From assembly GCA_902623255.1 (NCBI GenBank), contig CACNSY010000001.1:17463-81462 (forward strand): 64,000 nt of DNA, in the 5' to 3' direction. Both the position numbers and the translations under genes were made by a program. The notes beneath the pieces were generated by a model. That model had not been told where the DNA came from and did not search any database. It saw nothing but the letters and a program-made list of their open reading frames with translations. The stretch comes from an uncultured Alphaproteobacteria bacterium (GTDB lineage Bacteria; Pseudomonadota; Alphaproteobacteria; HIMB59; GCA-002718135). Position 1 is the stretch's first letter, and the number at the start of each line of letters is the position of its first letter. Positions 17,338 through 64,000 of the stretch are shown here, one piece after another.

Positions 17338-17415
17338 AAAAAAATTTGTTATATTGATAAATAAGCTAAAAACAATTCTTTTATGTTTGTTTTCTAAAAT
17401 AATATTTATTATAAT

Positions 17416-17487
17416 AATTTTAGGGGTGCTTAAATGCTGAGATTTATACCCTTTTAACCTGATCTGGATAATGCCAGCGGAGGAAAA
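17416..17487 (+). promoter_or_regulatory. TPP (THI-box) riboswitch, compact form, controlling thiB-thiP
   Basis: Conserved THI-box blocks appear in order: GGGGUGC (17423-29), CUGAGA (17437-42), ACCC (17448-51), AACCUGAUCUGGAUAAUGCCAGCG (17456-79). P3 is reduced to a few nt. The aptamer 3' end overlaps the GGAGGA Shine-Dalgarno (17479-84), just before ATG 17488. Confidence 0.88.
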
Positions 17488-18471
17488 ATGAAAACATTAC
17501 TAATTTTTTTAACTACCTTATTTATCTCTTTCTCAATCTATGCTGAGAAATTAACTATTTATACCTACGACTCTTTTGTTTCAGAGTGGGGTCCTGGGCC
17601 CATAATTGAAAAAATATTTGAAGAAAAACATAATGCAGATGTAGAATTTGTTGCTGTAGACAGTGCCGCAACATTATTGAATAAAGTTATTTTAGAAGGT
17701 GATACTTCTAAGGCAGATATAGTTTTAGGTCTTGATATGAATTTATTTGATTTAGCTGAACAATCTGGGCTTTTTACAACTCATAATATCAAAGACATAA
17801 ACAACTTAATTAATTTACCATTAAATTGGGAAAGTAATAAATTTGTTCCATATAATTATGGATACTTTTCTTTTGTGTATAATGAAGCAAATTTAGAAAC
17901 ACCTCCTAAATCAATGGACGAGTTGATTAATTCTACTAATGCCAGAATTGTAATTCAAGACCCGAGAACTTCTACCCCTGGATTAGGATTATTAACTTGG
18001 ATGAAAGCATTATATGGAGAAAAAGCTGGAGATGAATGGAAAAAATTAAATAAGAAAATTATTTCTGTTACCAAAGGATGGACAGATGCATATTATAATT
18101 TTTTTATGGCAGGAGAAGCTGACATGGTTTTAAGTTATACTACATCTCCAGCTGCACATATTATGTTTGAAGAAAGGTATGATATTCTTGCTACAACTTT
18201 TGAAGAAGGAAATTATATAACAATTGAATTTGCAGGTATTTTGAATAATTCACAAAATAAAGATTTAGCAAATAAATTTCTTAACTTTATGTTGTCAGAA
18301 GAATTTCAATCAGTAATACCATCAACAAATATTATGTATCCAATTACAAATATAAAAGATTTACCTGAGGCATTTGATAAACTAGATGTTCCTAACTTTA
18401 TTCAAATGGATCCAAAAGAAATTAATAAGAATAAAGAAAAATGGATTGATGAGTGGCTTAATGCCTCGTAA
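17488..18471 (+). CDS. thiB: thiamine/thiamine-pyrophosphate ABC transporter substrate-binding protein
   Basis: 327 aa with a signal peptide, ThiB/TbpA-like (family 1 SBP). Located directly downstream of the TPP riboswitch and upstream of a ThiP-type double permease. Confidence 0.85.
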   Translation: MKTLLIFLTTLFISFSIYAEKLTIYTYDSFVSEWGPGPIIEKIFEEKHNADVEFVAVDSAATLLNKVILEGDTSKADIVLGLDMNLFDLAEQSGLFTTHNIKDINNLINLPLNWESNKFVPYNYGYFSFVYNEANLETPPKSMDELINSTNARIVIQDPRTSTPGLGLLTWMKALYGEKAGDEWKKLNKKIISVTKGWTDAYYNFFMAGEADMVLSYTTSPAAHIMFEERYDILATTFEEGNYITIEFAGILNNSQNKDLANKFLNFMLSEEFQSVIPSTNIMYPITNIKDLPEAFDKLDVPNFIQMDPKEINKNKEKWIDEWLNAS

Positions 18472-20066: not shown

Positions 20067-21337
20067 AGATAAATACTTGCTACATAACCAATAAATATAA
20101 CTGGAGTCCATTTTAAATGTCCAAAAAAAGTGTAATATCCTCTTGCTTGTCCCATAAGTGCTACACCTGCAGCTGAACCAATTGACAATAGGCTACCACC
20201 CACTCCTGTTGTTAATGTAACTAATAACCACTGATCAATTGACATTTCCGGTCTCATAGTAATTACAGCAAACATCACTGGTATATTATCTACGATAGCT
20301 GAAAGAACACCTACTATAGAATTTGCCATTGTTGGGCCAAGACCAATATATAAGAATTCTGAAACAACAGTTAAGTAACCTATAAATCCTAAACCACCTA
20401 CACTTAAAATGACTCCAAAGAAGAATAATAAAGTGTCCCATTCAGCTCTTGAAACTTTTCTAAAGAAATCAAATTTTTCGTCTTCAACAGATGGATCATG
20501 TGTTATTTGCAAATAAAAAGAATATAACCCAAGAAGACCAAGACCAAACATCATGCCAAGCATTGGAGGCAAGTGAAGAATATTATGGAAGTTTACAGCA
20601 CTAAAAATTGTAAGCAAACCTAAAAAGATAATTACTCGTCCGCCTCTTTTCATATATTCTCTATCAGAACTAATTTGTGGTTTTTCATTTGGAATAAAGA
20701 AATACATAACTGCTGCAGGAATTATGTAATTAACCACAGAAGGAAAAAATATTTTAAAAAATGTAAAAAATTCGACAATACCAGCCTGCCATACCATTAA
20801 GGTAGTTATATCTCCAAATGGACTAAAAGCACCACCTGCATTTGCTGCAACAACTATATTAATACAACCAATCGATATAAATTTTGTATTACCTTTACCA
20901 CAGGCCATTACTACAGAGCACATGACTAGTGCAGTTGTTAAGTTATCAGCTATAGGAGATAAGAAAAAAGTAATTATACCTGTGAATATAAATAATTGTC
21001 TAAAGCTAAATCCCCTTGATGTTAATTGATATCTGACTACATCAAAAACTTTTCTTTCTTCTAAAGCATTGATGTAAGTCATAGCAACGAGAAGAAATAG
21101 GAAAAGTTCTGCAAATTCTAAGATATTATGCTCTAAAGCATACTCAATTTCTTTGGCATATTGCTTATCAGAAGAAAAATGGAAAGCTATAATGCCCCAT
21201 ATTACAGCAGCTGAAATAATAACTGGTTTAGATTTTCTTAGATGGCTAAATTCTTCAGCCATTACAACAGCATATGCAAGAACAAATACAATAAGGCTTA
21301 AAATGCCTACATATGATGTTGTTAGATCTATTTCCAT
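20036..21337 (-). CDS. nhaD: NhaD/ArsB-superfamily Na+/H+ antiporter-like permease
   Basis: 433 aa with about 12 TM segments. NhaD-like blocks (…NLTTALVMCSVVM…, …GGAFSPFGDITTLMVWQ…). Confidence 0.75.
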   Translation of the reverse strand: MEIDLTTSYVGILSLIVFVLAYAVVMAEEFSHLRKSKPVIISAAVIWGIIAFHFSSDKQYAKEIEYALEHNILEFAELFLFLLVAMTYINALEERKVFDVVRYQLTSRGFSFRQLFIFTGIITFFLSPIADNLTTALVMCSVVMACGKGNTKFISIGCINIVVAANAGGAFSPFGDITTLMVWQAGIVEFFTFFKIFFPSVVNYIIPAAVMYFFIPNEKPQISSDREYMKRGGRVIIFLGLLTIFSAVNFHNILHLPPMLGMMFGLGLLGLYSFYLQITHDPSVEDEKFDFFRKVSRAEWDTLLFFFGVILSVGGLGFIGYLTVVSEFLYIGLGPTMANSIVGVLSAIVDNIPVMFAVITMRPEMSIDQWLLVTLTTGVGGSLLSIGSAAGVALMGQARGYYTFFGHLKWTPVIFIGYVASIYLHVLMADLPW

Positions 21338-22125
21338 AGTTTTAAATTAAAGCCAATTACGTCTTTTTCAATCCCGAAATCATATAGATTATTGTGTATT
21401 GCTTCGTCAATAAAAACACTCTTTTTTATTACTTTTGCTTTATCATAAAGCTTAATACTGTGTTCATGCGGTACAATTTCATCCTTTTTTCCACTAATAA
21501 TAAGTAATGGCGAAGTTATTTTATCAATTTTACTGAAGTTATCGAATTTATCTTTAACTAAATATTTTGTTGGAAATATTTTATATCTTTTTTTTGCAAT
21601 ATCATTGATAGATGTAAATGGCGCTTCTAAAACAATAGATAAAAATTCGTACTTTGTACCCATTTCTACTGCAGCACCAGATCCGAGTGATTCTCCATAA
21701 ATCACTAATTCTTTGAATTTAAATTCAGTATTATTTTTAATCCATTTTAATACTGCTTCTGCATCTTTATATAAATTTTTTTCTGTTGGATTTCCTTTGT
21801 TACCTCCAAAGCCTCTCCAGGAAACTAAAAGTACGCTCCAATTTTTTTCGATATACCTCTGGATTCTGTAAGCTCTATCTCCGATATGAAAAGAATTACC
21901 ATGAAAATAAACTAGTAAAGGGAGTGAATTATTACCTTTATAATACCATGATAATAGCTTTAAGTTATCCTCAGTTTTAATATAAACTTCTTCTGTATTA
22001 TCCAAGTTATAATCCTTTGGTACGCCTGGATGTCCTGATTTATTAAAAACAATGCGTCTTTGAAAGATATACAAGAGAAAACCTAAAAAAAAATATAGAA
22101 AAATTGCAGAAAAAATGTAATTCAT
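21328..22125 (-). CDS. membrane-anchored alpha/beta hydrolase (BEM46/ABHD13-like)
   Basis: 265 aa with an N-terminal TM anchor. Nucleophile elbow GESLG, an Asp in GKKDEIVP, and a His in EAIHNN. Confidence 0.8.
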   Translation of the reverse strand: MNYIFSAIFLYFFLGFLLYIFQRRIVFNKSGHPGVPKDYNLDNTEEVYIKTEDNLKLLSWYYKGNNSLPLLVYFHGNSFHIGDRAYRIQRYIEKNWSVLLVSWRGFGGNKGNPTEKNLYKDAEAVLKWIKNNTEFKFKELVIYGESLGSGAAVEMGTKYEFLSIVLEAPFTSINDIAKKRYKIFPTKYLVKDKFDNFSKIDKITSPLLIISGKKDEIVPHEHSIKLYDKAKVIKKSVFIDEAIHNNLYDFGIEKDVIGFNLKLWK

Positions 22126-22141
22126 TACTTATTATAATATT

Positions 22142-22597
22142 ATGAGAATAGAAAACAAAGTAATTGATCCTCTAAGTCCTTACAGCCGCGCACTGAAAAA
22201 AATAGAGGAAAGTGGCATAAGACCTACAAAACAAAGAAGAATTTTAGCTAAATTAATTTTTGAAAAAGGTGACAGGCATATTTCTGCTGAAAATCTTTTT
22301 GATGAAGTAAAAAAAGAAGATAGAAAAATTTCTATGGCTACAATTTATAACACTTTAAAACAATTTACCTCATTAGGATTAATAAGAGAAATAGTTGTTG
22401 ATCAAAATAAATCACTCTATTGTAATAATAATAAATCTCATTATCATTTGTATATTGAAGATGAAGGTAAGATTCATGATATACCTACGAAAAATATTAA
22501 TCTTGATATACCTTCTATTCCTGCTTGTCTCTCATTGCATAATATTGATGTTATTGTCAGAGTTAGATCTCTTAAAGAAGACCAAAAAAAGAATTAA
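22142..22597 (+). CDS. Fur family transcriptional regulator (Irr-like; lacks CxxC zinc motifs)
   Basis: 151 aa. The winged-helix region (RPTKQRRILAKLIF...HISAENLFDEV...ISMATIYNTLKQFTSLGLI) is typical of Fur/Irr. There are no CxxC pairs, and an HYH motif is present. Confidence 0.8.
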   Translation: MRIENKVIDPLSPYSRALKKIEESGIRPTKQRRILAKLIFEKGDRHISAENLFDEVKKEDRKISMATIYNTLKQFTSLGLIREIVVDQNKSLYCNNNKSHYHLYIEDEGKIHDIPTKNINLDIPSIPACLSLHNIDVIVRVRSLKEDQKKN

Positions 22598-30912: not shown

Positions 30913-31677
30913 TTATGCAGTTGCTGAGTCTTTAGCAGCAGCGTTCCAGATAATTAAACCAAATAAGATTTTGTTAATAAAATCAGCAAGGTTATAGATC
31001 CAGTTTAGAGTATCAGCATCAACTGAACCCATCATTAAACCAAATACATATCCAAGAGGGTAAATTGCCCATCCAACTAATACAATTAATCTCATTGCAT
31101 TAAATGCTGAAGTTACTGACTCTTTAGTTGTAGCAGCTTGACTTGCTTCACCTCGGAAAATTTCCCAAATGATTACAGCCCAACCGATCATACCAATGAT
31201 GAAGCCAAGTAATACCGAAATATGACCTGCTTCTCCAAGATATCCACCAACAATCATAACAAGTGTACCAATGAGCAATCTGTAGAAAGCACCACTAGAT
31301 ACAGCTGCGCCGGCAGCAACTAGAATTAAAAAGAATTCAACCATTTGAAGTGGTACAGTTAGTATCCAGTCAATATATCTATATACTGTTGGTGACTCAC
31401 CTGTAGCAACCCAAAAGTCTCTCATATACATGTAATGTACAGCGGCTATAAAAGTAATTAACCCTGCAACAACCATTGAAGTTCTCCATTTAGAAGAAAC
31501 TCTCATACCTTCATAGAAAAAGAAGATTGTAGATGCCCACATTCCGATTGAAACAATCCAGAAAGTAATACCTACGAAATCACCTTCACCTAAGAAAGTA
31601 TCGGCAGCAAATGCTGGAACAGCTATAAATGCTATTGTTGCAGCAATGATACCTATTAGACTAGTCTTATTTAACAT
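30913..31677 (-). CDS. proteorhodopsin (light-driven proton pump), blue-tuned variant
   Basis: 254 aa with 7 TM segments. RYIDWILTVPLQMVEF supplies the D97/T101/E108 equivalents and Gln at the position-105 tuning site (codon 31347-31345 = CAA). The retinal lysine lies in NLADFINKILFGL, and His75 in VHYMYMR. Confidence 0.95.
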   Translation of the reverse strand: MLNKTSLIGIIAATIAFIAVPAFAADTFLGEGDFVGITFWIVSIGMWASTIFFFYEGMRVSSKWRTSMVVAGLITFIAAVHYMYMRDFWVATGESPTVYRYIDWILTVPLQMVEFFLILVAAGAAVSSGAFYRLLIGTLVMIVGGYLGEAGHISVLLGFIIGMIGWAVIIWEIFRGEASQAATTKESVTSAFNAMRLIVLVGWAIYPLGYVFGLMMGSVDADTLNWIYNLADFINKILFGLIIWNAAAKDSATA

Positions 31678-33798: not shown

Positions 33799-34290
33799 TT
33801 AATTTGAAGAATTCAAAAAATCATCAAATTTATCATTAAATTTTCTTGAAACATTAATATAATCACTACTTTCAATAATATTTGTAATTTTAAGATATTC
33901 TATAAAAGTTTCATTTTTATAAAGATTATTATCATCTGGAAATTTACTTATTCTAAAATAAAATTTTTTAACATATGATTTTACATACTTACCAATAGAC
34001 ATATCTCCTATACCCTTTTCTCTTAAAGATTCATCAAGATCAGATATAAATAATGATACTAATTCATCATTAACTTTTATGTATTTATTTCTATTATCTT
34101 CTAATAAATTTTTACGAATAAACATAATCAAAAAAATACAAATAATTTCAAATGATGTATTATAATTTTTTACTTTAAAAAAATTGCTGTTACTAAGAAA
34201 CAAGTTACTTTCATATAAAATTTTTTTATATTGCTTAGAAGCAATTATTTGCTCTTTATTTTCTTTTTTTTTAAAGTATTGTAAAATCAT
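33799..34290 (-). CDS. ubiquinol-cytochrome c chaperone (CBP3-like) domain protein
   Basis: 163 aa. The block [21 protein letters not shown] is typical of the Ubiq_cyt_C_chap family, and the gene has its usual alphaproteobacterial neighbour bamE. Confidence 0.7.
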
Positions 34291-34293
34291 TTA

Positions 34294-34722
34294 ATGATTA
34301 AAATATTAACTTATATATTTGCTCTTCTAATTTTGGCAAATTGTTCTAATAACACTACATATTCTGGAAAATTATTAAATCAAGATGAATTAGATGATTT
34401 AAATTTTAAAGACAAAAAAAAATTAATTCAAAAACTAGGTTCTCCTAGTTTTGTTGATCCAATTGAAAATAAATTTTTTTATTTTGCTCAAAAAAGTAAA
34501 AAAAAATCAATATTTAAAAGTAAAATAGAATACAGTTATGTTTTTGTCTTTAAATTCAACGAAGAAGAAATAATTATTTCAAGTAAGGTATATGATACAA
34601 AAAATTTAGAAAATATAAAATTTTCAAGTGATAAGACAACTAACGAAATAGTTAAAAGAGGCTTATTAGAAAAAATATTTGGAGGAGTCGGAACTCAACA
34701 AGAATTACCGACTACCCCCTAA
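34294..34722 (+). CDS. bamE: outer membrane protein assembly factor BamE (SmpA/OmlA lipoprotein)
   Basis: 142 aa. Lipobox LLILANC and the SmpA/OmlA-like block (KLIQKLGSPSFVDPIENKFFYF). Confidence 0.8.
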   Translation: MIKILTYIFALLILANCSNNTTYSGKLLNQDELDDLNFKDKKKLIQKLGSPSFVDPIENKFFYFAQKSKKKSIFKSKIEYSYVFVFKFNEEEIIISSKVYDTKNLENIKFSSDKTTNEIVKRGLLEKIFGGVGTQQELPTTP

Positions 34723-34729
34723 ATTTTTA

Positions 34730-36835
34730 TTATAAGGAAATTGCAGCTAAAAGTAACAAAGCTACAATATTAGTAATTTTAATCATTGGATTAACTGCTG
34801 GGCCTGCAGTATCTTTATAGGGATCACCTACAGTATCTCCTGTTACAGCTGCTTTATGTGCTTCACTACCCTTACCACCATGATTACCATCTTCAATAAA
34901 TTTTTTTGCATTATCCCAAGCGCCGCCTCCTGCTGTCATACTTATTGCAACGAACAACCCAGTGATTATAACACCTAATAATAAAGCTCCTAAACATGAA
35001 AGTGCAGCCGATTGGCCAGCAATAAATAAAATAACAAAATAAACTACTATTGGCGATAATACAGGTAACATCGAAGGTATAATCATTTCCTTAATTGCAG
35101 ATTTAGTAAGGATATCAACACAAGTTCCGTATTCAGGTTTTCCTTTACCTTCCATAATTCCAGGAATTTCTTTAAACTGTCTTCTTACCTCTAAAACTAC
35201 AGAACCAGCCGCTCTTCCAACTGCAGTCATACTTAAAGCTCCAAATAGGAAGGGTAATAAGCCTCCAAGCAATAAACCAACGACAACATAAGGATTGGAT
35301 AAATCAAAAGAAACCTCTATTCCATATAAAGGGCTACTTGGATCTTTAGCAAAATGATCAAGATCTTCTGTGTAAGCTGCAAACAACACTAATGCTCCTA
35401 ATCCTGCCGAGCCTATGGCATATCCTTTTGTGACAGCTTTAGTTGTATTACCTACTGCATCAAGCGCATCAGTTGTCTTTCTAACATTATCATCTAAATT
35501 CGACATTTCTGCTATACCACCAGCATTATCTGTCACAGGTCCGTAAGCGTCTAATGCAACTACCATTCCAGCCAAAGCTAACATAGTTGTTACAGCAATC
35601 GCTATGCCAAATAATCCAGCTAGTGAATATGTAGAAATAATTCCAGCGACAATAATTAAGGCAGGAAGGGCTGTAGCCTCTAAGCTGATTGCAAGTCCTT
35701 GTATTACGTTTGTTCCATGACCTGTAGTTGATGATTGAGCAATACTTTGAACAGGTCTGTAATTTGTACCTGTGTAATACTCAGTTACCCAAATAATTAA
35801 ACCTGTAATAATTAATCCCAACAAACCACAAATAAAAAGTGACATTCCAGTGAATTGAGTAGATGTTCCTTCAACGACCAAAACACTATTTAAACCTACT
35901 ATATAATCAGTAACGAAGTATAATAATAAAGCAGATAAGATAGCTGATACTGCAAATCCTCTATAAAGTGCTGCCATAATATTATTATTTTTACCAAGTC
36001 TTACAAAATAAGTTCCAATTATACTCGTTAACGCACAAACTCCTGCAATAGCTAAAGGAAATATCATCATTGTATAAGAATTTTCTATAAAAAATATGGA
36101 GGCCAAAACCATTGTTGCTACAACTGTAACAACATAAGTTTCAAAAAGATCTGCTGCCATACCAGCACAATCACCAACATTGTCTCCAACATTATCTGCG
36201 ATTACAGCTGGATTTCGAGGATCGTCTTCTGGAATACCGGCTTCTACTTTTCCCACTAAATCTGCTCCAACATCAGCACCCTTGGTAAAAATACCTCCAC
36301 CTAGTCTTGCAAAAATTGAAATTAATGATGCTCCAAATCCAAGCGATACTAAGGGAGCAACAATCTCTCTTCCCGGAAATGAACCAGAGTTGTGCAAAAC
36401 AAAATAAAAAATTGCAATAGAAAGAAGTGCAAATCCTGCAACTAGCATTCCAGTTACAGCACCTGCTTTAAATGATACTGATAAACCTTCAGCTAAGCTA
36501 TTACTTGCAGCATGCGTTGTACGAACATTAGATCTAACCGATATATTCATTCCAACATAACCTGCAGCTCCAGAAAAAAATGCTCCAATTAAAAAGCCAA
36601 TTCCGGATGCCAAATCAAAAACTATCCAAATAAGGGCAAAAATGACAACCCCTACAATTGCTATTGTCATGTACTGTCTGTTTAAATAAGCTCTAGCACC
36701 TTCTTGAATTGCGCCAGCAATTTCTTGCATTTTATCATTTCCAGAACCAAGTGATAAAATTTGTCTAGATGTTACTAGACCATATAGTACGGCTGCTAGA
36801 CCGCATAAAACAATTAATACCTGCAGTGTTGTCAT
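34730..36835 (-). CDS. hppA: membrane-bound proton-translocating pyrophosphatase (K+-independent type)
   Basis: 701 aa. [55 protein letters not shown] (Lys at the A/K determinant). Confidence 0.95.
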
Positions 36836-54589: not shown

Positions 54590-55271
54590 TAATTTTTTTT
54601 AATGCAATTTCTGCAGCATTTCTCTCTGCCTCCCTTATTGAAGAACCTTTTGAATTGATTTTATTTAAATTTACCACTTTAACTGAAACAGTGAATGTGG
54701 GTGAATGAGGTGGTCCTTCTTTTTTGATTAATTTATATTCAGGAAGTTTTTTATAAAGTTGTTGTGACATTTCTTGTAATAATGTTTTTGGATCTAAGGT
54801 TTTAGAAACTTCAATATCTAGATATTTTGACCAAAATTTACTTATAAAATTAAAAGAAGGGTTATATCCGCCATCTAAAAATATTGCTCCAATTAATGAC
54901 TCAACTGAATCTGAAAAAATAGAATTTAACATTTTATTGTTTTTTTTCTTAAAGTTGTATTGAAGCACATCTTCTATTTGCAATTCTTGTGAAATTTTAA
55001 ATAAAAATTTTTTTTGAACTAAATAAGAATATTTTTTTGATAAGTCACCTTCATTAAATTTTTTATATTTTGAAAATAATAAATTTGCTATTATTAATCC
55101 TAAAACTCGGTCACCTAAAAATTCAAATCTTTCAAATTCATTGATATTAATTTTTTTTTCATTTTCTAAATAAAAACTTGGATGAGTTAAGGATTGAATT
55201 AACAATTTGTTATTTTTAAACTTATAATTTATTTTTTTCTCAAATAGTTTGAGCTTTTTACTGTCTATCAT
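54564..55271 (-). CDS. rnc: ribonuclease III
   Basis: 235 aa. RNase III signature ERFEFLGDRVLG and a C-terminal dsRBD. Confidence 0.93.
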   Translation of the reverse strand: MIDSKKLKLFEKKINYKFKNNKLLIQSLTHPSFYLENEKKININEFERFEFLGDRVLGLIIANLLFSKYKKFNEGDLSKKYSYLVQKKFLFKISQELQIEDVLQYNFKKKNNKMLNSIFSDSVESLIGAIFLDGGYNPSFNFISKFWSKYLDIEVSKTLDPKTLLQEMSQQLYKKLPEYKLIKKEGPPHSPTFTVSVKVVNLNKINSKGSSIREAERNAAEIALKKINEKKNIKN

Positions 55272-56002
55272 TGAATTTTTTGAAAAATTCTTTCATATCT
55301 TATTGAGTTTGGCCATTTCCATATCTGTAAAAATCTTGCATTTTCTAAAGAAAAAAAAATAAACTGCGCCTTACCAACTAAATTTTCATAAGGAATGAAT
55401 CCAACTGTACTCATAAATCTACTATCTTGTGAATTATCTCTATTATCACCCATTACGAAGAAATGATTTTCAGGAACATTAAAAAGCTGTGTATTGTCCG
55501 CAATACCATTATCAGTTATGTCAAGTATATTAATCTCTTTATTAAAGAAATATTCATTATACATTCTAATTCTTTTATTACTTGTTTTATTATCTGAATC
55601 TATAAAATCATTTAATTTTTTCTGTAAAATTTCTGATCCATTAATAAAAATAATTCCATTTTTAATTTCTATTTTGTCACCTGGCAAACCAATTACTCTT
55701 TTAATATAATCGGTTCTATTATTTTCAGGAGTTTTAAATACTACTACATCACCTCTTTCAGGTATATTTGAGAATATTTTTCCTGGTATCATAGGTATTG
55801 AAAATGGAAGGGAGTGTTTAGAAAAGCCATATGAATATTTTGAAACAAAAATAAAATCTCCCACAAGGAGATTTGGTTTCATTGATCCCGAAGGTATATT
55901 GAATGGCTCAAATATAAATGATCTAATTAGTAAGGCTATAAAGATTGCTATAAGTATTGATTTCAAATTACCAAAAAAACTATTTTTTTTTGATTTAGTC
56001 AT
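55268..56002 (-). CDS. lepB: signal peptidase I
   Basis: 244 aa. Catalytic Ser in IPSGSMKPNL, a Lys box (YIKRVIGLPGD), and GDNRDNSQDSR. Confidence 0.93.
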   Translation of the reverse strand: MTKSKKNSFFGNLKSILIAIFIALLIRSFIFEPFNIPSGSMKPNLLVGDFIFVSKYSYGFSKHSLPFSIPMIPGKIFSNIPERGDVVVFKTPENNRTDYIKRVIGLPGDKIEIKNGIIFINGSEILQKKLNDFIDSDNKTSNKRIRMYNEYFFNKEINILDITDNGIADNTQLFNVPENHFFVMGDNRDNSQDSRFMSTVGFIPYENLVGKAQFIFFSLENARFLQIWKWPNSIRYERIFQKIQ

Positions 56003-58549: not shown

Positions 58550-58969
58550 CTATAATTCTTGAACTTTATCTTCATCTGATAAATTTTCTAAATTATCCTG
58601 TGAAGTTTCAATAGGTGTTTCTTCTACAGACTCATTAGTTTTTTCATATTCTTGGTGTTCCTCAATAGAATCTGAATCATCTTTATCAGATTTATTTTCA
58701 TCACTACCATCCTCTATCTCATTTAAATCTTCATCTTCACCAAAGGTATTAGTTTGATATTCTTCTATTAAATCATTTTTTAATTGTTGAGTCGTAAGTG
58801 CTTCTTCTGCTATTTCTCTAAGTGCAATCACAGTATTTTTATCATTATCAATTTCTACTTTTGCATTTTCTCCTGCATATAGTTTTCTTGCTCTATTAGA
58901 TGCTACTAATACTAATTCAAATCTACTTGGGAATTTATCAATACAATCTTCAACTGTGATTCTAGCCAT
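58550..58969 (-). CDS. rpoZ: DNA-directed RNA polymerase subunit omega, with long acidic C-terminal tail
   Basis: 139 aa. Start [30 protein letters not shown], followed by a D/E/S-rich tail of about 65 aa. Confidence 0.92.
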
Positions 58970-59006
58970 AAAGGGCTTATAGAGATCAATTTTTAAAAGT
59001 AAATAG

Positions 59007-59453
59007 TTAATTATTTTTAAGTAATCTTTGCTTTTTAATATTCCAATCCCTTTGTTTTATTGACTCTCTTTTATCGATTTTTTTCTTACCTTTTGCAATT
59101 CCAAAAGATAGTTTAGCTAAACCTTTATCCGAGAAATATAAAGATATCGGTATTATTGTAAATCCGCCTTGCTTAATAGATCCAGATATTTTATTAAATT
59201 CTCTCTTTGTAACTAATAATTTTCTTTTTCTATTTGGATCATAATTATTATCATTAGAATTTTGATATTTTTTTATAAAAGAATTAGATAGCCAAAGTTC
59301 TCCATTTTGTTCTACAATAAATGACCCCCTAATTGAGCCTGTATTGATGCGTAAAGATTTGACTTCTGATCCAGTTAATACAACGCCAGCTTCAATTTTA
59401 TTAGAAATTGTAAAATTATAATTAGCTCTATTGTTAGCAGCAATAATTTTCAT
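59007..59453 (-). CDS. smpB: SsrA-binding protein SmpB
   Basis: 148 aa. [15 protein letters not shown] and RKRKLL motifs. Confidence 0.92.
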
Positions 59454-60326
59454 CTACAAAAGTTGTAGATCTTGAAGGCAATTTTTGACGAGTTTTTTTG
59501 TATCATCTTTAATTTCTGATAATGGAAGTCTTGTATTTTGATTACACAAACCAAGCAATGAAGCTGCGTATTTAACTGGTCCAGGACTAGATTCTATAAA
59601 TAAAGCATTATGTAATGAAGACAATTTAAGATTAATTTCTTGAGCTTTAGAAATATTTGCTTCTTGCCACGCGGAATGCATTTGTGAACATAATTTTGGA
59701 GCAACATTTGCAGTCACTGAAATACAACCGTGTCCACCTTGAGCTAAATATGCTAAAGCCGTCCCATCTTCACCTGATAGATAACAAAATTCATTTTGCA
59801 TTTTTTTTCTGGTAAGCAATGGTCTAAATAAATCATTAGTTGCATCTTTAACTCCAATAATATTTTTTAACTTTGATAATTCAATCATAGTTTCGATGCT
59901 CATATCAACAATTGATCTACCAGGTATGTTATATATTATTATTGGAATATTTGTTTTGTCAGCAATTGTTTTAAAATGTTCATATAATCCAGATTGAGTT
60001 GGCTTATTATAGTAGGGGGTTACAATTAGAGCAGCATCAGCTCCTGAATTTTCAGCATGATTAGTATATTCTAAGGCCTCTAAAGTATTGTTTGAACCAG
60101 TGCCAGCTATTACAGGAATTCTTTTATCAGCAATTCGTATAGTTTCTTCAATTATTTTTTTATGCTCCTCGTGTGACAAGGTTGGAGACTCGCCAGTAGT
60201 TCCACATGGAACAAGTCCATGAGATCCATTATCTATTAAATATTTTATAACCTTTGATAAAGAATTGTAATCAACTTTATCTTCAACAAATGGTGTAATT
60301 ACTGCTGGTATACTTCCTTTAAACAT
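59454..60326 (-). CDS. dapA: 4-hydroxy-tetrahydrodipicolinate synthase
   Basis: 290 aa. Start MFKGSIPAVITPF, GTTGESPTL, and IIYNIPGRS. Confidence 0.95.
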   Translation of the reverse strand: MFKGSIPAVITPFVEDKVDYNSLSKVIKYLIDNGSHGLVPCGTTGESPTLSHEEHKKIIEETIRIADKRIPVIAGTGSNNTLEALEYTNHAENSGADAALIVTPYYNKPTQSGLYEHFKTIADKTNIPIIIYNIPGRSIVDMSIETMIELSKLKNIIGVKDATNDLFRPLLTRKKMQNEFCYLSGEDGTALAYLAQGGHGCISVTANVAPKLCSQMHSAWQEANISKAQEINLKLSSLHNALFIESSPGPVKYAASLLGLCNQNTRLPLSEIKDDTKKLVKNCLQDLQLL

Positions 60327-60332
60327 TTTAAG

Positions 60333-60424
60333 TGGCGGAGAGAGAGGGATTCGAACCCTCGGAAGGAATTACTTCCTTCGCAGGTTTAGCAAACCTGTGG
60401 TTTAAGCCACTCACCCATCTCTCC
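60333..60424 (-). tRNA. tRNA-Ser (anticodon GCU)
   Basis: The reverse complement GGAGAGATGGGTGAGTGGCTTAAACCACAGGTTTGCTAAACCTGCGAAGGAAGTAATTCCTTCCGAGGGTTCGAATCCCTCTCTCTCCGCCA is a 92-nt class II tRNA with a long variable arm, anticodon loop TTGCTAA and an encoded CCA. Confidence 0.93.
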
Positions 60425-60592
60425 TGTAATTGTTTCATATTGCTTAATTCATGTAATAACGAAAATAGACAGGAATCTCAACATTATTTAATTAATATTT
60501 AAAATATTGTTAGCAATGAAGGAATTATCAAAAAAGCATTTCTTAGTTTGAGTTATAAATTCATTGTGCCCATAGCGTGCCTAAAAATTTTA

Positions 60593-61750
60593 TTAAATTA
60601 AGTTAATTCTTTCAAAAAACCAATATAAACCAATACTAGATATCAATATAGAAGATGGAACTTGAAAAAACATTCTGTAATTTTTATTTTTAGCAAAGTT
60701 TAATGCAATCAATAGATATAGAACCAATACTATAGATATTTGTGCTACTTCAATACCAATATTAAAAGATACAAGATTTATAAATAAGTCTGTACTCCTA
60801 TAACCTATATCACTCAAAACTAATGCAAATCCTAAACCATGAAGTAATCCAAAAAACAAAATTACAATATATCTTAAATATCCTTTTATATATTTTTTAA
60901 AAATATTTTCTAATCCGATATAAACTATAGAAAGTGCAATGATAGGTTCAACAATTTGAGGATTAATTCTCATTAAAGATAAAGAAACAAATATAAGGGT
61001 AATTGAATGAGCAATAGTAAAGATAGTTATTTGAGAAATTAATTTTTTTAAAGATGATGAAAATAAAAAAAGTCCAAATATGAATAAAATATGATCTAAT
61101 CCTTTTGGAATTATATGTTGAATTCCTAAAACAAAAAATTTTGCAAAGCTATTAAATGTTTTACTAAAATTATTTTCCTTAAATGAAAATTGACTTGATT
61201 CAATTCCTGATTGCAAATATTCTGTAACTAATTCATCTTCTAATTTGTTATTATTATTCTCTCTTAAAATAATTGGACCGTAGTTTTTAACCCACCTAAA
61301 TGTAAATTGTTCAGAATTTTCATCTAATAAAACTCTAAAATAAACATGTGTATCTCTACTTATTTCAAAATTTTTTATATCTTCAACTTCAATTTTAATT
61401 AAATTTATTTTCTTTGTTTCATTATTAATTTTAATATCAATATTAGAACTTATTTCACTCCAAGAATTTTGAAAAATTTCTTCAAGGTCTTTTTTGCTTA
61501 AAATTCTAAATTTATCATAAATTTTACTTAGTGATGAAGAGTCTGTATTAGAAACAGTAGATGCATCAATATTAGATAATATCAATTCAGCGTTTAATCT
61601 TATTTTAAAGTTCAAATATTTTTCATCATAAGTAAAATCTGCAATAGATGGCTTGATTTCATGACTAATAGAAGATGTTGAAAATAAATTTAAAAAACAT
61701 ACTAGAATTAAAAATAGATATAACTTTATATTTTTTATATAATAGAACAT
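60593..61750 (-). CDS. HupE/UreJ-like (HupE_UreJ_2-type) membrane protein with an N-terminal periplasmic domain of about 200 aa; putative metal transporter
   Basis: 385 aa with a signal peptide (…NLFSTSSIS/HEIKP). The C-terminal ~6-TM region carries HupE-like motifs: GIQHIIPKGLDHILF, FTIAHSITL, LLHGLGFA. Confidence 0.65.
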   Translation of the reverse strand: MFYYIKNIKLYLFLILVCFLNLFSTSSISHEIKPSIADFTYDEKYLNFKIRLNAELILSNIDASTVSNTDSSSLSKIYDKFRILSKKDLEEIFQNSWSEISSNIDIKINNETKKINLIKIEVEDIKNFEISRDTHVYFRVLLDENSEQFTFRWVKNYGPIILRENNNNKLEDELVTEYLQSGIESSQFSFKENNFSKTFNSFAKFFVLGIQHIIPKGLDHILFIFGLFLFSSSLKKLISQITIFTIAHSITLIFVSLSLMRINPQIVEPIIALSIVYIGLENIFKKYIKGYLRYIVILFFGLLHGLGFALVLSDIGYRSTDLFINLVSFNIGIEVAQISIVLVLYLLIALNFAKNKNYRMFFQVPSSILISSIGLYWFFERINLI

Positions 61751-61751
61751 T

Positions 61752-62561
61752 ATGAAATTTACTTTAAAAAGATTAATATTTGTTATTATCTTAACTTCAA
61801 TAACAAAAATCTCTTTATGTCATGAATTTTGGATTGATCCAAAAAATTATCACTTATCAAATAATGAAAAAGCTGTGGCGAATATCTTTATAGGAGAAAA
61901 TTTTGAAGGATCACCAATACCATTTACAAAAGAATATTTTAAAATTGCATTCCTGCATGCTGAAGATAATAAATTAAAAATTAAAGGTAGATTAGGTGAT
62001 ATTCCCGCTCTTAATATTAAAAAAGCATTCAAAGGATTAAATGTAATACAAGTTGAATCAGTTACTAAATATGTTGAGTATGAAAAATTAGTAAAATTTG
62101 AAATTTTCACAAGAGAGAAAGGATATCCAAATTTAGCTCAAAAACATAAAGAAAATAACTACCCAGAAAATTTTTTTGAAAGTTATAAAAGATATGCAAA
62201 GTCATTAATTAGTGTGGAAAATTTTGATGGTAAAGATATCGATACAAATATGGACTTTGAATTAATTTTTTTAGATAATCCTCTTAAAAATTTAAATGAA
62301 AGTAAAAGAATTCTATTAGAATATAAAAATAAAATACTAGCTGATCATAAGGTTTCTATTATGAGTTTAAATAATGGTTATTTTAGAAAAGAATATGTTA
62401 GAACAAACAAGGATGGATATTTTGATTACTTATTTAAAGAAAACACAAAATATCTAATTGAAAGTGTTGTTATAATCGAAGGCAGTAATAAGAAAAAAGA
62501 TAATTATGCTAAATGGCATTCTTTGTGGACTTCTTATACATTAAAAACATCCAATAAATGA
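61752..62561 (+). CDS. DUF4198-like periplasmic protein (Ni/Co-uptake-associated family); putative metal-binding component
   Basis: 269 aa. A signal peptide is followed by HEFWIDP, which resembles the H-x-F-W mature N-terminus typical of DUF4198 proteins. Divergent from the HupE-like gene. Confidence 0.6.
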   Translation: MKFTLKRLIFVIILTSITKISLCHEFWIDPKNYHLSNNEKAVANIFIGENFEGSPIPFTKEYFKIAFLHAEDNKLKIKGRLGDIPALNIKKAFKGLNVIQVESVTKYVEYEKLVKFEIFTREKGYPNLAQKHKENNYPENFFESYKRYAKSLISVENFDGKDIDTNMDFELIFLDNPLKNLNESKRILLEYKNKILADHKVSIMSLNNGYFRKEYVRTNKDGYFDYLFKENTKYLIESVVIIEGSNKKKDNYAKWHSLWTSYTLKTSNK

Positions 62562-62625
62562 TTTAAGAGTGTTGAATTGCTATTAAAAATTTTATGAATA
62601 ATTATAATATTAAAGATAAATAAAA

Positions 62626-62970
62626 ATGACTAATACAAATATAATAAAAGATTTTTTTGAAGGAAAAATAAAACTCTGGAAATCCTATTGGTTAGTTGGT
62701 GAACTACTAAATGGTATTGTTTTGCTTGTTATATTTAATCTTGAAATTTATTTTTTTAATACAGATAGCTCTGTTTCGCAAATACCTTTTTTAGATTTTA
62801 CTAATCTTGCGCTAATCTCAAAAATTTTTATTTTTATTTGGACAATATTTATTTCTATTGGAATTTGGAGAGCAGCAGAAAATTACAAAGGAAGTATTAT
62901 TTGGATAGTTTTAACATTTATAATTGTTGCTTATAGATGCTATTCTTTACGTTTAATTTTTTTTATTTAA
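62626..62970 (+). CDS. hypothetical small membrane protein
   Basis: 114 aa with three hydrophobic segments. Motifs LWKSYWLVG and IWRAAENYKGSIIW are present, but I cannot name a family. Confidence 0.5.
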   Translation: MTNTNIIKDFFEGKIKLWKSYWLVGELLNGIVLLVIFNLEIYFFNTDSSVSQIPFLDFTNLALISKIFIFIWTIFISIGIWRAAENYKGSIIWIVLTFIIVAYRCYSLRLIFFI

Positions 62971-64000
62971 TTTTTGTTTTAAAATATCATTTAACATTTT
63001 TGGATTAGCTTTTCCTTTAGTTAATTTCATAGCTTGGCCAACAAAGAAACCTAATAACTTGTCTTTACCTGCTAGATACTGTTCGACCATTTTTGGATTT
63101 TCTGCAATGACCTCATCAATAACTTTTGCTATTTCACCCTGATCTGTAACTTGTTGCAAACCCTTTTCATCTACGATTTGTCTAGCTGTTTTTCCTGAAG
63201 AAAACATGTCTTCCAATACATCTTTTGCAATTTTGCCAGAAATTTCATTTGTAGAAATTAACTTTATAAGTTGTCCTAAGTTTTCAGGTGATACTGGAGA
63301 GTTATTTAAATCTTGATTATTTTTATTTAATAATGAAAACAATTCAGACGTAATCCAATTTACAACTATTTTTGCATGATTTTTTAATTCTGGATCTGAA
63401 TTAATTGTTTCATTAAAATAATCAGATGTTTGTTTCTCTGCAGTTAATACTGAGGCATCATAATTAGACAATTTATAAGTCTCAATAAATTTATTCTTAA
63501 GCTCATCTGGAAGCTCTGGAATTGATGATTTAATTTTCCCTATTTCTTCTTTAGAAATTTCTAGTGGTAATAAATCTGGATCAGGAAAGTATCTATAGTC
63601 ATGAGCTTCTTCTTTATTTCTCATGGGTCTAGTTTTGCCAGTAGATGTATTAAAGAGCATTGTGTTTTGTTCAATAGAACCGCCAGACTCCAATATTTCT
63701 ATTTGTCGTTTTGCTTCATAATTAATAGCCTGCTTTATAAACTTAATAGAGTTTAAGTTTTTAATTTCACATCGAGTTCCATATTCATCTCCAGGTTTTC
63801 TTACTGAAATATTTACATCTGCTCTTAAAGAACCTTCTTGCATATTTCCATCACATGTATCTAAATACATTAAAATAGATCTGATTTTGGATATATACAT
63901 TCCAGCTTCATCAGGAGTTCTAATGTCAGGCTCACTAACAATTTCCATTAAAGCAACACCAGACCTATTAAGATCTACATATGTTTTTGAAGGATTTTGA
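62953..64000 (-). CDS. gatB: Asp-tRNA(Asn)/Glu-tRNA(Gln) amidotransferase subunit B. This is the 3' part; the 5' end lies beyond the right edge.
   Basis: The track shows 62953..63948, but the frame stays open to the window edge. Codons 63999-63949 read ...QNPSKTYVDLNRSGVAL before MEIVSEPDIR, matching the GatB core. The C-terminal GatB/YqeY domain is present. Confidence 0.92.
   Translation of the reverse strand, partial: QNPSKTYVDLNRSGVALMEIVSEPDIRTPDEAGMYISKIRSILMYLDTCDGNMQEGSLRADVNISVRKPGDEYGTRCEIKNLNSIKFIKQAINYEAKRQIEILESGGSIEQNTMLFNTSTGKTRPMRNKEEAHDYRYFPDPDLLPLEISKEEIGKIKSSIPELPDELKNKFIETYKLSNYDASVLTAEKQTSDYFNETINSDPELKNHAKIVVNWITSELFSLLNKNNQDLNNSPVSPENLGQLIKLISTNEISGKIAKDVLEDMFSSGKTARQIVDEKGLQQVTDQGEIAKVIDEVIAENPKMVEQYLAGKDKLLGFFVGQAMKLTKGKANPKMLNDILKQKLNKKN

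Follow-up and report, generated by a model that had tools for sequence, protein, structure and literature searches.

A divergent Ang-1–HupE/DUF4198 gene pair with abutting start codons, a putative periplasmic metal-capture and uptake module of SAR11

Organization of the locus

The window (the whole stretch of 64,000 nucleotides that was analysed) carries two genes arranged head to head, one on the minus strand for a HupE fusion protein with a signal peptide, a periplasmic domain and a permease core, and one on the plus strand for a secreted DUF4198 protein (Table 1). Both start codons are fixed, because neither signal-peptide region contains any other in-frame ATG, GTG or TTG and neither open reading frame can be extended upstream. 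In profile searches the fusion protein matched PF13795 (HupE_UreJ_2; E = 2.7e-43, score 147.8 bits, cut-off 24.5, residues 205–350 covering positions 1–151 of the 156 in the profile) better than PF04955 (2.6e-09), and the plus-strand product matched PF10670 (3e-17, score 63.9 bits, cut-off 34, residues 24–238). No NCBIfam model was found for either protein. An earlier note, made from the DNA letters, had claimed the two reading frames with their coordinates and the one-base separation of the ATGs, the fixed starts, the two families, a membrane topology for HupE and a secreted one for DUF4198; ORF calls, codon positions and profile matches over the Pfam gathering cut-offs bear out this description throughout.

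Table 1. Coordinates of the features at the HupE–DUF4198 locus (positions in the window)
Feature	Position	Strand	Remarks
HupE fusion gene	60593..61750	-	ORF, 385 aa; signal peptide / Ang-1 / HupE-UreJ-2
HupE/UreJ-2 permease core	60596..61150	-	PF13795 and invariant columns; six hydrophobic segments
Ang-1 (anglerase-1) periplasmic metal-capture domain (putative)	61151..61663	-	Starts at mature His1 = His30 codon, 61661-61663; phmmer against 9gce_A
HupE signal-peptide codons 1-29 (MFYYIKNIKLYLFLILVCFLNLFSTSSIS)	61664..61750	-	-3 S, -1 S; variable segment, then invariant HEIKP; the plus strand holds the candidate DUF4198 promoter here
Candidate DUF4198 promoter in HupE codons 3-12	61715..61743	+	TAGATA, 17 nt, TATAAT; ends 8 nt before ATG (near-leaderless); consensus scan 10/12
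Alternative -10 for DUF4198, TAACTT	61721-61726	+	Position homologous to the roseobacter element
Single nucleotide between start codons (CAT-T-ATG)	61751..61751	.	T; CAT 61748-61750, ATG 61752-61754
DUF4198 gene, secreted product	61752..62561	+	ORF, 269 aa
DUF4198 signal-peptide codons 1-23 (MKFTLKRLIFVIILTSITKISLC)	61752..61820	+	-3 S, -1 C; mature His1 = His24 codon, 61821-61823
Candidate HupE promoter in DUF4198 codons 8-17	61773..61800	-	TTGAAG (61800-61795), 16 nt, TATTAA (61778-61773); weak -10

The Ang-1–HupE permease and the DUF4198 protein

As judged from homology, the fusion protein consists of an Ang-1 anglerase domain and a PF13795 permease. The periplasmic domain of about 200 aa, present as the earlier note had claimed but left anonymous there, can now be assigned to the Ang-1 domain of structure 9GCE: phmmer aligned residues 30–165 with residues 1–136 of 9GCE chain A (E = 3.7e-13), and His1 of the chain falls on H30. 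The characterized member RbAng-1a binds Cu2+ with a Kd of 74 nM and Ni2+ with a Kd of 220 nM through His1 and Asn41, and His1 is reported to be 100% conserved in the family (PMC12537917). The residue at position 41 is Asp in the window protein (SNTDSS) and D or N in all loci examined; the same paper describes this ligand position as not highly conserved.

In the permease core, the motifs HIIPKGLDH, AHSITL and LLHGLGFA, claimed from the start, were all found in the translation. Residues H212, D219, H220, H248, E268, E281, H304 and E334 are invariant among 10 SAR11 sequences with 76–95% identity to the window protein, and the polar TM-helix residues typical of HupE_UreJ_2 (the H..., DH, AHS and HGLGFA motifs) are kept; the number of TM segments was read from the sequence and not from a predictor. 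About 5600 homologues of the fusion protein, nearly all from SAR11, are annotated as HupE/UreJ family.

Both proteins are predicted to begin with histidine once the signal peptide is removed, in agreement with the earlier proposal. The predicted HupE site (SIS/HEIKP) has small residues at -1 and -3, and the His-Glu that follows is invariant in all 92 HupE sequences. The predicted DUF4198 site (SLC/HEFW) has S, G or A at -1 in relatives, followed by invariant HEFW, and H24, E25 and W27 are invariant in 47 DUF4198 sequences down to 25% identity. Taken over both proteins, the -1 residue is A, S, G, C or T, the -3 residue mostly A, S, V or G, and HE follows in 184/184 homologous sequences. Furthermore, the crystallized homologue 9GCE starts at the histidine that aligns with the predicted mature His1, and an N-terminal His after signal-peptide cleavage is reported for 79% of the DUF4198 family.

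The plus-strand product is a DUF4198 family member with a predicted beta-sandwich fold. Its AF2 model reached a pLDDT of 91.5 and a pTM of 0.87, while an earlier input, a shallow SAR11-only alignment, gave an unusable model (pLDDT 50.7). Foldseek searches with the model returned Zcp (E about 1e-13) and 9gcb (1.4e-8) and nothing else over TM 0.3. The Zcp metal triad H29/H31/H142 is not kept: H142 falls in the region of Asn157, H29 corresponds weakly to the non-invariant H34, and H31 corresponds to Ser. The residue after the conserved Ala43, a candidate for the IsDUF4198 His18 site by positional mapping only, is N, G or K in SAR11 clade I and His in HIMB59-like and Rhodobacteraceae members. No sequence-level alignment of 9GCB to the window protein was obtained, even by bridging from a Rhodobacteraceae member. 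Ligand chemistry is thus not transferable from Zcp or IsDUF4198, because this subfamily lacks H142 and, in SAR11, appears to lack a His18 equivalent as well.

Conservation of the pair and of its start codons

The DUF4198 gene lies adjacent to and divergent from the Ang-1–HupE gene in the window, as it does in almost every related locus. The pairing was found in every SAR11 locus with upstream DNA, in HIMB59-like and Rhodobacteraceae loci, and in 76 of 77 metagenome loci, and it is kept in six contexts whose flanking genes are unrelated. The pairing is near-obligate. A neighbouring gene, orf114, was considered as a conserved third component and rejected, as it occurs in close SAR11 clades only.

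The start codons of the two genes are 1 nt apart in 47 of 50 SAR11 loci. Among 52 roseobacter-type loci, 37 have a CATG overlap and eight have CAT-N-ATG. By this distribution, the abutting or overlapping geometry is ancestral.

Comparison with known systems

The closest known system is the RbAng-1a–HupE/UreJ-2 protein of Rhodobacteraceae (9GCE; Franco Cairo et al., Nat Commun 2025, PMC12537917), which has, like the window protein, a signal peptide, an Ang-1 beta-sandwich with His1, a linker and a PF13795 permease. It also shares the oxygen donor at position 41 (Asn there, Asp in the window) and has a DUF4198 gene as a frequent neighbour; an Ang-1–HupE + DUF4198 gene pair is drawn in Fig. 4a of that paper. 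Full-length identity of the window protein to roseobacter-type proteins is only about 37–42%. Publications of 2025 had already described the two families and how often they are adjacent (Nat Commun 16:9244; PNAS 122:e2426176122). The proteins are therefore not new, and the locus represents, in SAR11, a two-gene module for periplasmic metal capture and uptake built from these families. What is new is the abutting or overlapping starts across alphaproteobacteria, with at least one promoter apparently placed within the signal-peptide codons of the partner; the available text of PMC12537917 makes no mention of head-to-head start geometry or of an embedded promoter.

Two DUF4198 proteins can be compared with the plus-strand product. 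First, IsDUF4198 of Ideonella sakaiensis (9GCB), a secreted Ni2+-binding protein, shares PF10670, the N-terminal His and the fold (Foldseek E = 1.4e-8, TMt 0.73). It differs in sequence (about 10% identity, no sequence-level match), in its second ligand His18, for which SAR11 clade I has no apparent His counterpart by positional mapping only, and in its reported neighbours, which are TonB receptors and NikR, not HupE. Second, Zcp of Neisseria gonorrhoeae (NGO1049; 9MHI-9MHO), a Zur-regulated zinc-capture protein, is the best structural match (E about 1e-13, TM 0.65–0.75) and gives a weak profile match (E = 2e-5); it is likewise periplasmic and binds metal. Zcp is monocistronic with a Zur box and is not needed for uptake, whereas no Zur box was found at the window junction.

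Among the HupE/UreJ proteins, only the canonical HupE, a distant relative, is known to import metal (reference 26 in PMC12537917). These canonical Ni/Co permeases (PF04955; e.g., Rhizobium leguminosarum HupE) are related six-TM secondary permeases with His, Asp and Glu in their TM helices. They are about 190 aa long, have no large periplasmic domain and lie in hydrogenase or urease clusters; the window pair has no Ni client nearby.

A functional likeness exists to copper import by CopC-CopD and YcnJ, in which a periplasmic beta-sandwich binds Cu through the amine and imidazole of an N-terminal His and the CopC-type domain is coupled, and sometimes fused, to an inner-membrane importer. These families are unrelated to the window proteins, and no membership is claimed.

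A model for metal capture and transport

Collectively, these results suggest that the gene pair probably encodes a self-contained two-gene module that captures a transition metal in the periplasm and imports it, and that is transcribed from divergent embedded promoters. In this model, the HupE/UreJ-2 permease would sit in the inner membrane and, once signal peptidase has cut, Ang-1 would form its N-terminus. A divalent metal would be chelated by the free amine and the imidazole of His1 and by the Asp or Asn oxygen at position 41. A flexible linker would then let Ang-1 swing the bound metal onto the mouth of the permease, as has been proposed for the family (PMC12537917). The soluble periplasmic DUF4198 protein, through its own His1, would most likely capture or buffer the same metal and pass it to Ang-1–HupE. 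We infer both the direction of import and this hand-off.

As for the metal, the earlier note had tied these families to Ni and Co and had remarked that nothing in the window is a client of either. The latter point stands: among the window ORFs of 90 aa or more, Pfam identified no Ni or Co client enzyme. The link to Ni and Co alone is too narrow: characterized relatives prefer Cu over Ni (Ang-1) or bind Ni (IsDUF4198, Kd 18 nM) or Zn (Zcp) (PMC12537917 and PMC12663993). The candidate metals are Cu, Ni or Zn.

It is possible, if rather unlikely, that the two proteins are co-regulated with separate functions, DUF4198 acting as a Zcp-like periplasmic buffer or chaperone for envelope metalloproteins and Ang-1–HupE importing metal alone. 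Hand-off to a permease is not the default of the DUF4198 family, because Zcp, its only member with genetics, is dispensable for Zn uptake, associates with envelope-maintenance proteins and serves envelope clients; the anglerase model already supplies HupE with a capture domain of its own. Against such a separation of functions, the near-obligate pairing and the interlocked starts recur in SAR11, HIMB59-like and roseobacter loci despite unrelated flanks, and the DUF4198 subfamily of the window differs from Zcp in its ligand set, with His1 invariant.

Promoters embedded in coding sequence

In the proposed module, transcription would diverge from promoters lying in the signal-peptide codons of the partner gene. 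This would account for start codons that abut (CAT-N-ATG) or overlap (CATG), would place the two promoters face to face and would make the mRNAs antisense to each other in their 5′ portions. Among roseobacter-type relatives, the evidence is strong that the DUF4198 promoter occupies signal-peptide codons of HupE, where rare codons keep it in place. TTGACA occurs in 46 of 55 roseobacter-type junctions, where about 0.05 occurrences per junction would be expected, and its reading frame is NTG-TCA-ANN in every case, so that the Ser codon is TCA in 46/46 compared with a usage of 9.9%. Downstream of it, a 16-nt spacer leads to CAGC[TC]T with A-11 and T-7 in 32/32. Next come a likely +1 A (26/32) and a Shine-Dalgarno motif, AAGG, with the ATG at +56.

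In SAR11 the corresponding signals are weaker, and they support an embedded DUF4198 promoter moderately; both candidate promoters of Table 1 have a -35-like box held by particular codons. TAGATA is kept in 31–33 of 37 loci through HupE codon 12, the rare CTA in 32/37; on the other strand, TTGAAG or TTGAAC is found in all SAR11 junctions, with DUF4198 codon 16 being TCA in 37/37 against a background of 27%, although the SAR11 sequences are related and these codon counts are not independent events. Synonymous diversity in the first 15–25 codons of both genes is about 0.5 times that of the gene body (0.5–0.65, compared with 0.73–1.07 in control genes). The depletion appears real and modestly beyond that of controls, and is not proof of a promoter.

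The earlier note had placed each promoter inside the coding sequence of the other gene. This view is upheld for the DUF4198 promoter, strongly in roseobacter-type loci and moderately in SAR11, and is not upheld for the HupE promoter in roseobacter-type loci, where no conserved -35/-10 element was detected within 80 nt. HupE may instead lack a promoter in the 5′ region of DUF4198, with its transcription starting at a promoter farther away or continuing out of gatB, which lies upstream on the same strand, and running antisense through orf114 and DUF4198. The absence of terminator-like sites in 60300–63000 is in keeping with this explanation. We regard it as unlikely, since in SAR11 a TTGAAG with a fixed TCA codon precedes the HupE ATG by 43 nt, an AGGAG Shine-Dalgarno motif embedded in DUF4198 codons 3–5 of Lutimaribacter implies a HupE 5′ UTR, and the flanking genes vary by lineage, so that read-through from no particular neighbour can be general.

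Known metal-responsive elements were also sought. Within 61600–61900, no match was found to the Fur consensus (at least 14/19), the Neisseria Zur consensus (at least 11/15) or the gamma-proteobacterial Zur consensus (at least 16/23), and each has many equal matches elsewhere in the window. The ICE/Irr box consensus has 40 matches in the window compared with 39 expected, none of them at the junction. There is no Rfam riboswitch near the gene pair, and literature searches found no expression data linking the pair to a metal. The imperfect palindrome GTTATTATCTTAAC (61782..61795), put forward previously as a possible operator, pairs at 5/7 positions, a score of at least 5/7 being found in 2.9% of window 14-mers, and only one of 37 related loci has its first G; it is at chance level and not conserved, and was rejected.

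Separately, an Irr-type regulator is encoded in the window.

Other interpretations

The abutting starts could be a by-product of genome streamlining in SAR11 with no regulatory meaning. This genome has other divergent genes with almost no spacer: a second pair (33799-34290 / 34294-34722) lies 3 nt apart and a further one 16 nt apart, and a promoter-like scan yields fewer sites in the window than in shuffles. Yet CATG and CAT-N-ATG are also found in roseobacters with large GC-rich genomes, in which rare codons maintain the embedded -35 and its distance to the ATG does not vary; streamlining as the whole explanation is quite improbable. That the His1 centres are catalytic, as in LPMO-like redox enzymes, is highly improbable: the N-terminal histidine brace is an LPMO hallmark and Cu-loaded Ang domains show weak oxidase activity, but that activity is similar to that of free Cu2+ and the authors conclude on a binding or transport role (PMC12537917), Ang-1 forms one protein with a permease, and no carbohydrate-active genes lie nearby.

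Implications

The conserved CATG or CAT-N-ATG junction, with its likely promoter in signal-peptide codons, offers a clean natural case of dual-use coding sequence. It is experimentally tractable, for example by synonymous recoding of TCA, in cultivable roseobacters with the same module. Because the promoters would face each other and the mRNAs would be antisense at their 5′ ends, the interlocked bidirectional unit might set the ratio of capture protein to permease, or their mutual exclusion, and in SAR11 it might be a recombining block of the flexible genome that provides the main high-affinity route for scarce metals (Cu, Ni, Zn) and marks trace-metal niches; we regard this wider reading as speculative and doubtful. 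According to two reports, hupE/ureJ genes are present in about 45% of SAR11 genomes (PMC4771312), and certain Pelagibacter populations of the Southern Ocean are distinguished by DUF4198 (PMC12972064). No heterotroph of the surface ocean is more abundant than SAR11, whose known repertoire for trace-metal uptake is very small. A compact module of a His1 capture protein and a HupE-type permease is a candidate route by which these cells may take up Cu, Ni or Zn when their concentrations are very low.

Gene pair and family assignments

The window has a low GC content and belongs to SAR11 (Pelagibacteraceae); its nearest database proteins, named from Pelagibacteraceae, are 95-97% identical, and the genes near the divergent pair include spoT, rpoZ, smpB, dapA, tRNA-Ser(gct), and gatB. 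The two ORFs and their 1-nt start spacing lie exactly where the earlier note had placed them. Neither signal-peptide region contains a further in-frame ATG, GTG, or TTG, and neither ORF can be extended upstream; therefore, both starts are fixed by the sequence itself. The predicted membrane ORF directly downstream of the DUF4198 gene (orf114) has no Pfam or NCBIfam match, overlaps the gatB 3′ end by 18 nt, and is kept only in close SAR11 clades.

Features of the window, in window coordinates
Feature	Coordinates	Strand	Details
HupE ORF	60593-61750	-	385 aa
DUF4198 ORF	61752-62561	+	269 aa
Start junction	CAT 61748-61750; single T 61751; ATG 61752-61754		
orf114	62626-62970	+	114 aa
HupE-DUF4198-orf114 block	60593-62970		
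dapA, smpB, rpoZ	58550-60326		
Candidate SAR11 DUF4198 promoter	61715-61743	+	TAGATA, 17 nt, TATAAT; ends 8 nt before ATG
Candidate -35-like TTGAAG	61800-61795	-	
Palindrome (rejected as operator)	61782-61795		
Ubiq_cyt_C_chap family gene	33799-34290	-	
142-aa ORF without Pfam match	34294-34722	+	
Irr-type Fur-family regulator gene	22142-22597	+	NCBIfam IrrA 150.3 bits, cut-off 150
Alpha/beta-hydrolase gene	21328-22125		divergent from Irr-type gene
TPP riboswitch ahead of solute-binding protein gene, proteorhodopsin-type gene, H+-pyrophosphatase, signal peptidase I	17412-17502, 30913-31677, 34730-36835, 55268-56002		

Profile searches bore out the HupE/UreJ-like and DUF4198-like families proposed earlier: the minus-strand protein matched PF13795 HupE_UreJ_2 (2.7e-43, residues 205-350; PF04955 matched more weakly), and the plus-strand protein matched PF10670 DUF4198 (3e-17). 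The periplasmic part described for the minus-strand protein is present but not anonymous; it is an Ang-1 domain, with residues 30-165 matching PDB chain 9gce_A (E = 3.7e-13) and chain residue 1, a histidine, aligned to His30. Franco Cairo et al. (Nat Commun 2025, PMC12537917) describe 9GCE as RbAng-1a, an "anglerase-1" domain from a HupE/UreJ-2 protein of Rhodobacteraceae, with affinities (Kd) of 74 nM for Cu2+ and 220 nM for Ni2+ and a mono-histidine brace formed by His1 and Asn41; the domain is proposed there to swing on a flexible linker and feed the permease. Where RbAng-1a has Asn41, the window protein has Asp, and all related loci have D or N.

A structure model of the DUF4198 protein from a shallow alignment was useless (pLDDT 50.7), and a model from a 47-sequence alignment (down to 25% identity) reached pLDDT 91.5 and pTM 0.87. 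When the latter was compared with the PDB by Foldseek, the matches with TM >0.3 were of only two kinds: the Zn-capture protein Zcp (entries beginning 9MH; E ~1e-13, TM 0.65-0.75) and Ni-bound IsDUF4198 (9GCB; E = 1.4e-8, TMt 0.73). The Zcp chains 9MHI-9MHO are named "Phosphoribosylglycinamide formyltransferase" in the PDB sequence file, a name that does not fit the protein; look-ups by name would miss these chains.

Histidine-first mature termini

Signal peptidase I is the type of enzyme that would generate termini beginning with histidine (His1). The predicted cleavage exposing His1 in both proteins held up in SAR11 and other lineages (92 sequences each of HupE and DUF4198), with A, S, G, C, or T at position -1, mostly A, S, V, or G at position -3, and a variable signal peptide followed by an invariant His-Glu (HE[IV]xP in HupE, HE[FYM]W in DUF4198). 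Furthermore, the crystallized Ang-1 homologue (9GCE) starts at the aligned His, and PMC12537917 gives His1 conservation of 100% for Ang-1 and 79% for DUF4198. The Cys at -1 in the window's DUF4198 protein does not belong to a lipobox; relatives carry Ser, Gly, or Ala there.

A conserved module with abutting starts

The two genes form a conserved and autonomous module. The divergent pair was found in all SAR11 loci that extend far enough upstream, in HIMB59-like and Rhodobacteraceae MAGs, in cultured Ruegeria aquimaris and Lutimaribacter marinistellae, on four further contigs with unrelated flanking genes, and in 76 of the 77 roseobacter-type metagenome loci that had 400 nt or more of upstream sequence. 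In HIMB59-like loci, a conserved 111-aa membrane ORF without Pfam match lies just downstream of DUF4198 (L057 2792-3127, L058 2768-3103, L061 338-673), and a 116-aa ORF, similar by eye, lies downstream of HupE in another locus (L053 5206-5556); such an ORF may represent an accessory component or a coincidence.

Among 23 matched SAR11 genomes (loci L001-L055), synonymous-codon divergence of the HupE-DUF4198-orf114 block was 0.15 versus 0.34-0.39 in dapA, smpB, and rpoZ, roughly 3-fold lower, while its amino-acid divergence was similar to that of dapA and smpB. This pattern is consistent with a flexible block beside tRNA-Ser that recently spread by recombination or underwent a gene-specific sweep. 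The same low synonymous divergence is seen in orf114.

In SAR11, 47 of 50 loci have 1 nt between the start codons, two have 2 nt, and one has a CATG overlap; in roseobacter-type loci, whose genomes are large and GC-rich, the in-frame starts form a CATG overlap in 37/52 and CAT-N-ATG in 8/52. The abutting or overlapping geometry is ancestral and not a streamlining accident. Shine-Dalgarno-like motifs of each gene sit within the partner's first codons. Other divergent pairs in the window are 3 nt and 16 nt apart, and tight spacing alone is therefore common in this genome. Near-zero divergent spacers recur: the Ubiq_cyt_C_chap family gene and its partner have 3 nt between called starts. In HIMB59-like junctions (L057 ~3992-4014; L058, L061), the sole plausible ATGs give a ~24-nt 5′ CDS overlap, more extreme than in SAR11.

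Predicted embedded promoters

Of 55 non-redundant roseobacter-type junctions, 46 carry a perfect TTGACA on the DUF4198-sense strand, inside HupE signal-peptide codons, compared to a background of 0.00029 per nt (~0.05 expected per junction). Its frame is constant (NTG-TCA-ANN), the first residue being M, L, or V and the third codon always starting with A, and the Ser codon is TCA in 46/46 junctions, although these genes use TCA for only 9.9% of the Ser residues in their mature part. A 16-nt spacer and CAGC[T/C]T follow, in which A-11 and T-7, the key -10 positions, do not vary (32/32), partly through use of the rare AGG codon for Arg. The likely transcription start is an A located seven to eight nt further on (26/32); an AAGG Shine-Dalgarno motif comes next, and the distance between the T of TTGACA and the ATG is exactly 56 nt in 32/45 loci. 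Collectively, these patterns provide strong comparative evidence for a sigma-70-type DUF4198 promoter written into the HupE coding sequence of roseobacter-type loci. No mirrored promoter element for HupE was found in these junctions.

The SAR11 promoter signals are weaker. In 32/37 loci, CTA, a rare codon for Leu (9% usage), preserves the G of the candidate TAGATA, and in 37/37 TCA (27% usage) preserves the candidate TTGAAG, among related sequences whose counts are not independent. Over their first 15-25 codons, both SAR11 genes have about half the synonymous diversity of the gene bodies; control genes gave 0.73-1.07 of the gene body, so the excess 5′ constraint is modest. With each gene's promoter inside its partner's coding region, the geometry implies that the promoters would face each other and the transcripts would overlap at their 5′ ends. 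The imperfect palindrome earlier suggested as an operator was rejected, as only 5/7 positions pair, 2.9% of window 14-mers are equal or better, and its first G is found in only 1/37 relatives.

Metal and regulation

The earlier Ni/Co framing was too narrow: IsDUF4198 binds Ni via His1 and His18, Zcp binds Zn via H29, H31, and H142 (PMC12663993), and Ang-1 binds Cu more tightly than Ni (PMC12537917). Invariant in the window's DUF4198 subfamily are His1, Glu2, Trp4, H132, E143, Y145, and E170, and Zcp's H142 is absent. The candidate His18 position (after conserved Ala43), mapped by position only because 9GCB gave no sequence-level alignment, is His in HIMB59-like and Rhodobacteraceae proteins, whereas SAR11 clade I has Asn, Gly, or Lys. 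As the earlier note had observed, no recognizable Ni or Co enzyme occurs among window ORFs of at least 90 aa. No riboswitch was found near the pair; Fur, Zur, and Irr-box matches at the junction did not exceed background, and ICE-box matches across the window were at chance level. The Irr-type regulator gene is only 16 nt from its divergent hydrolase neighbor. The transported metal, a putative hand-off between the HupE fusion and the DUF4198 protein, and the regulation of the pair are all what we infer.

Relation to the published system

The published Ang-1-HupE/UreJ-2 plus DUF4198 system has its SAR11 orthologue in the window pair, and PMC12537917 already lists DUF4198 as a prevalent neighbor of Ang-1-HupE genes. 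The earlier observation was confirmed and its interpretation was largely right, but it had been overtaken by the literature. Several aspects appear to be undescribed in the literature searched. First, a distinct HEFW-type DUF4198 subfamily is paired near-obligately with Ang-1-HupE. Second, the abutting or overlapping start codons of the pair are conserved. Third, there is codon-level evidence for a promoter within signal-peptide codons.
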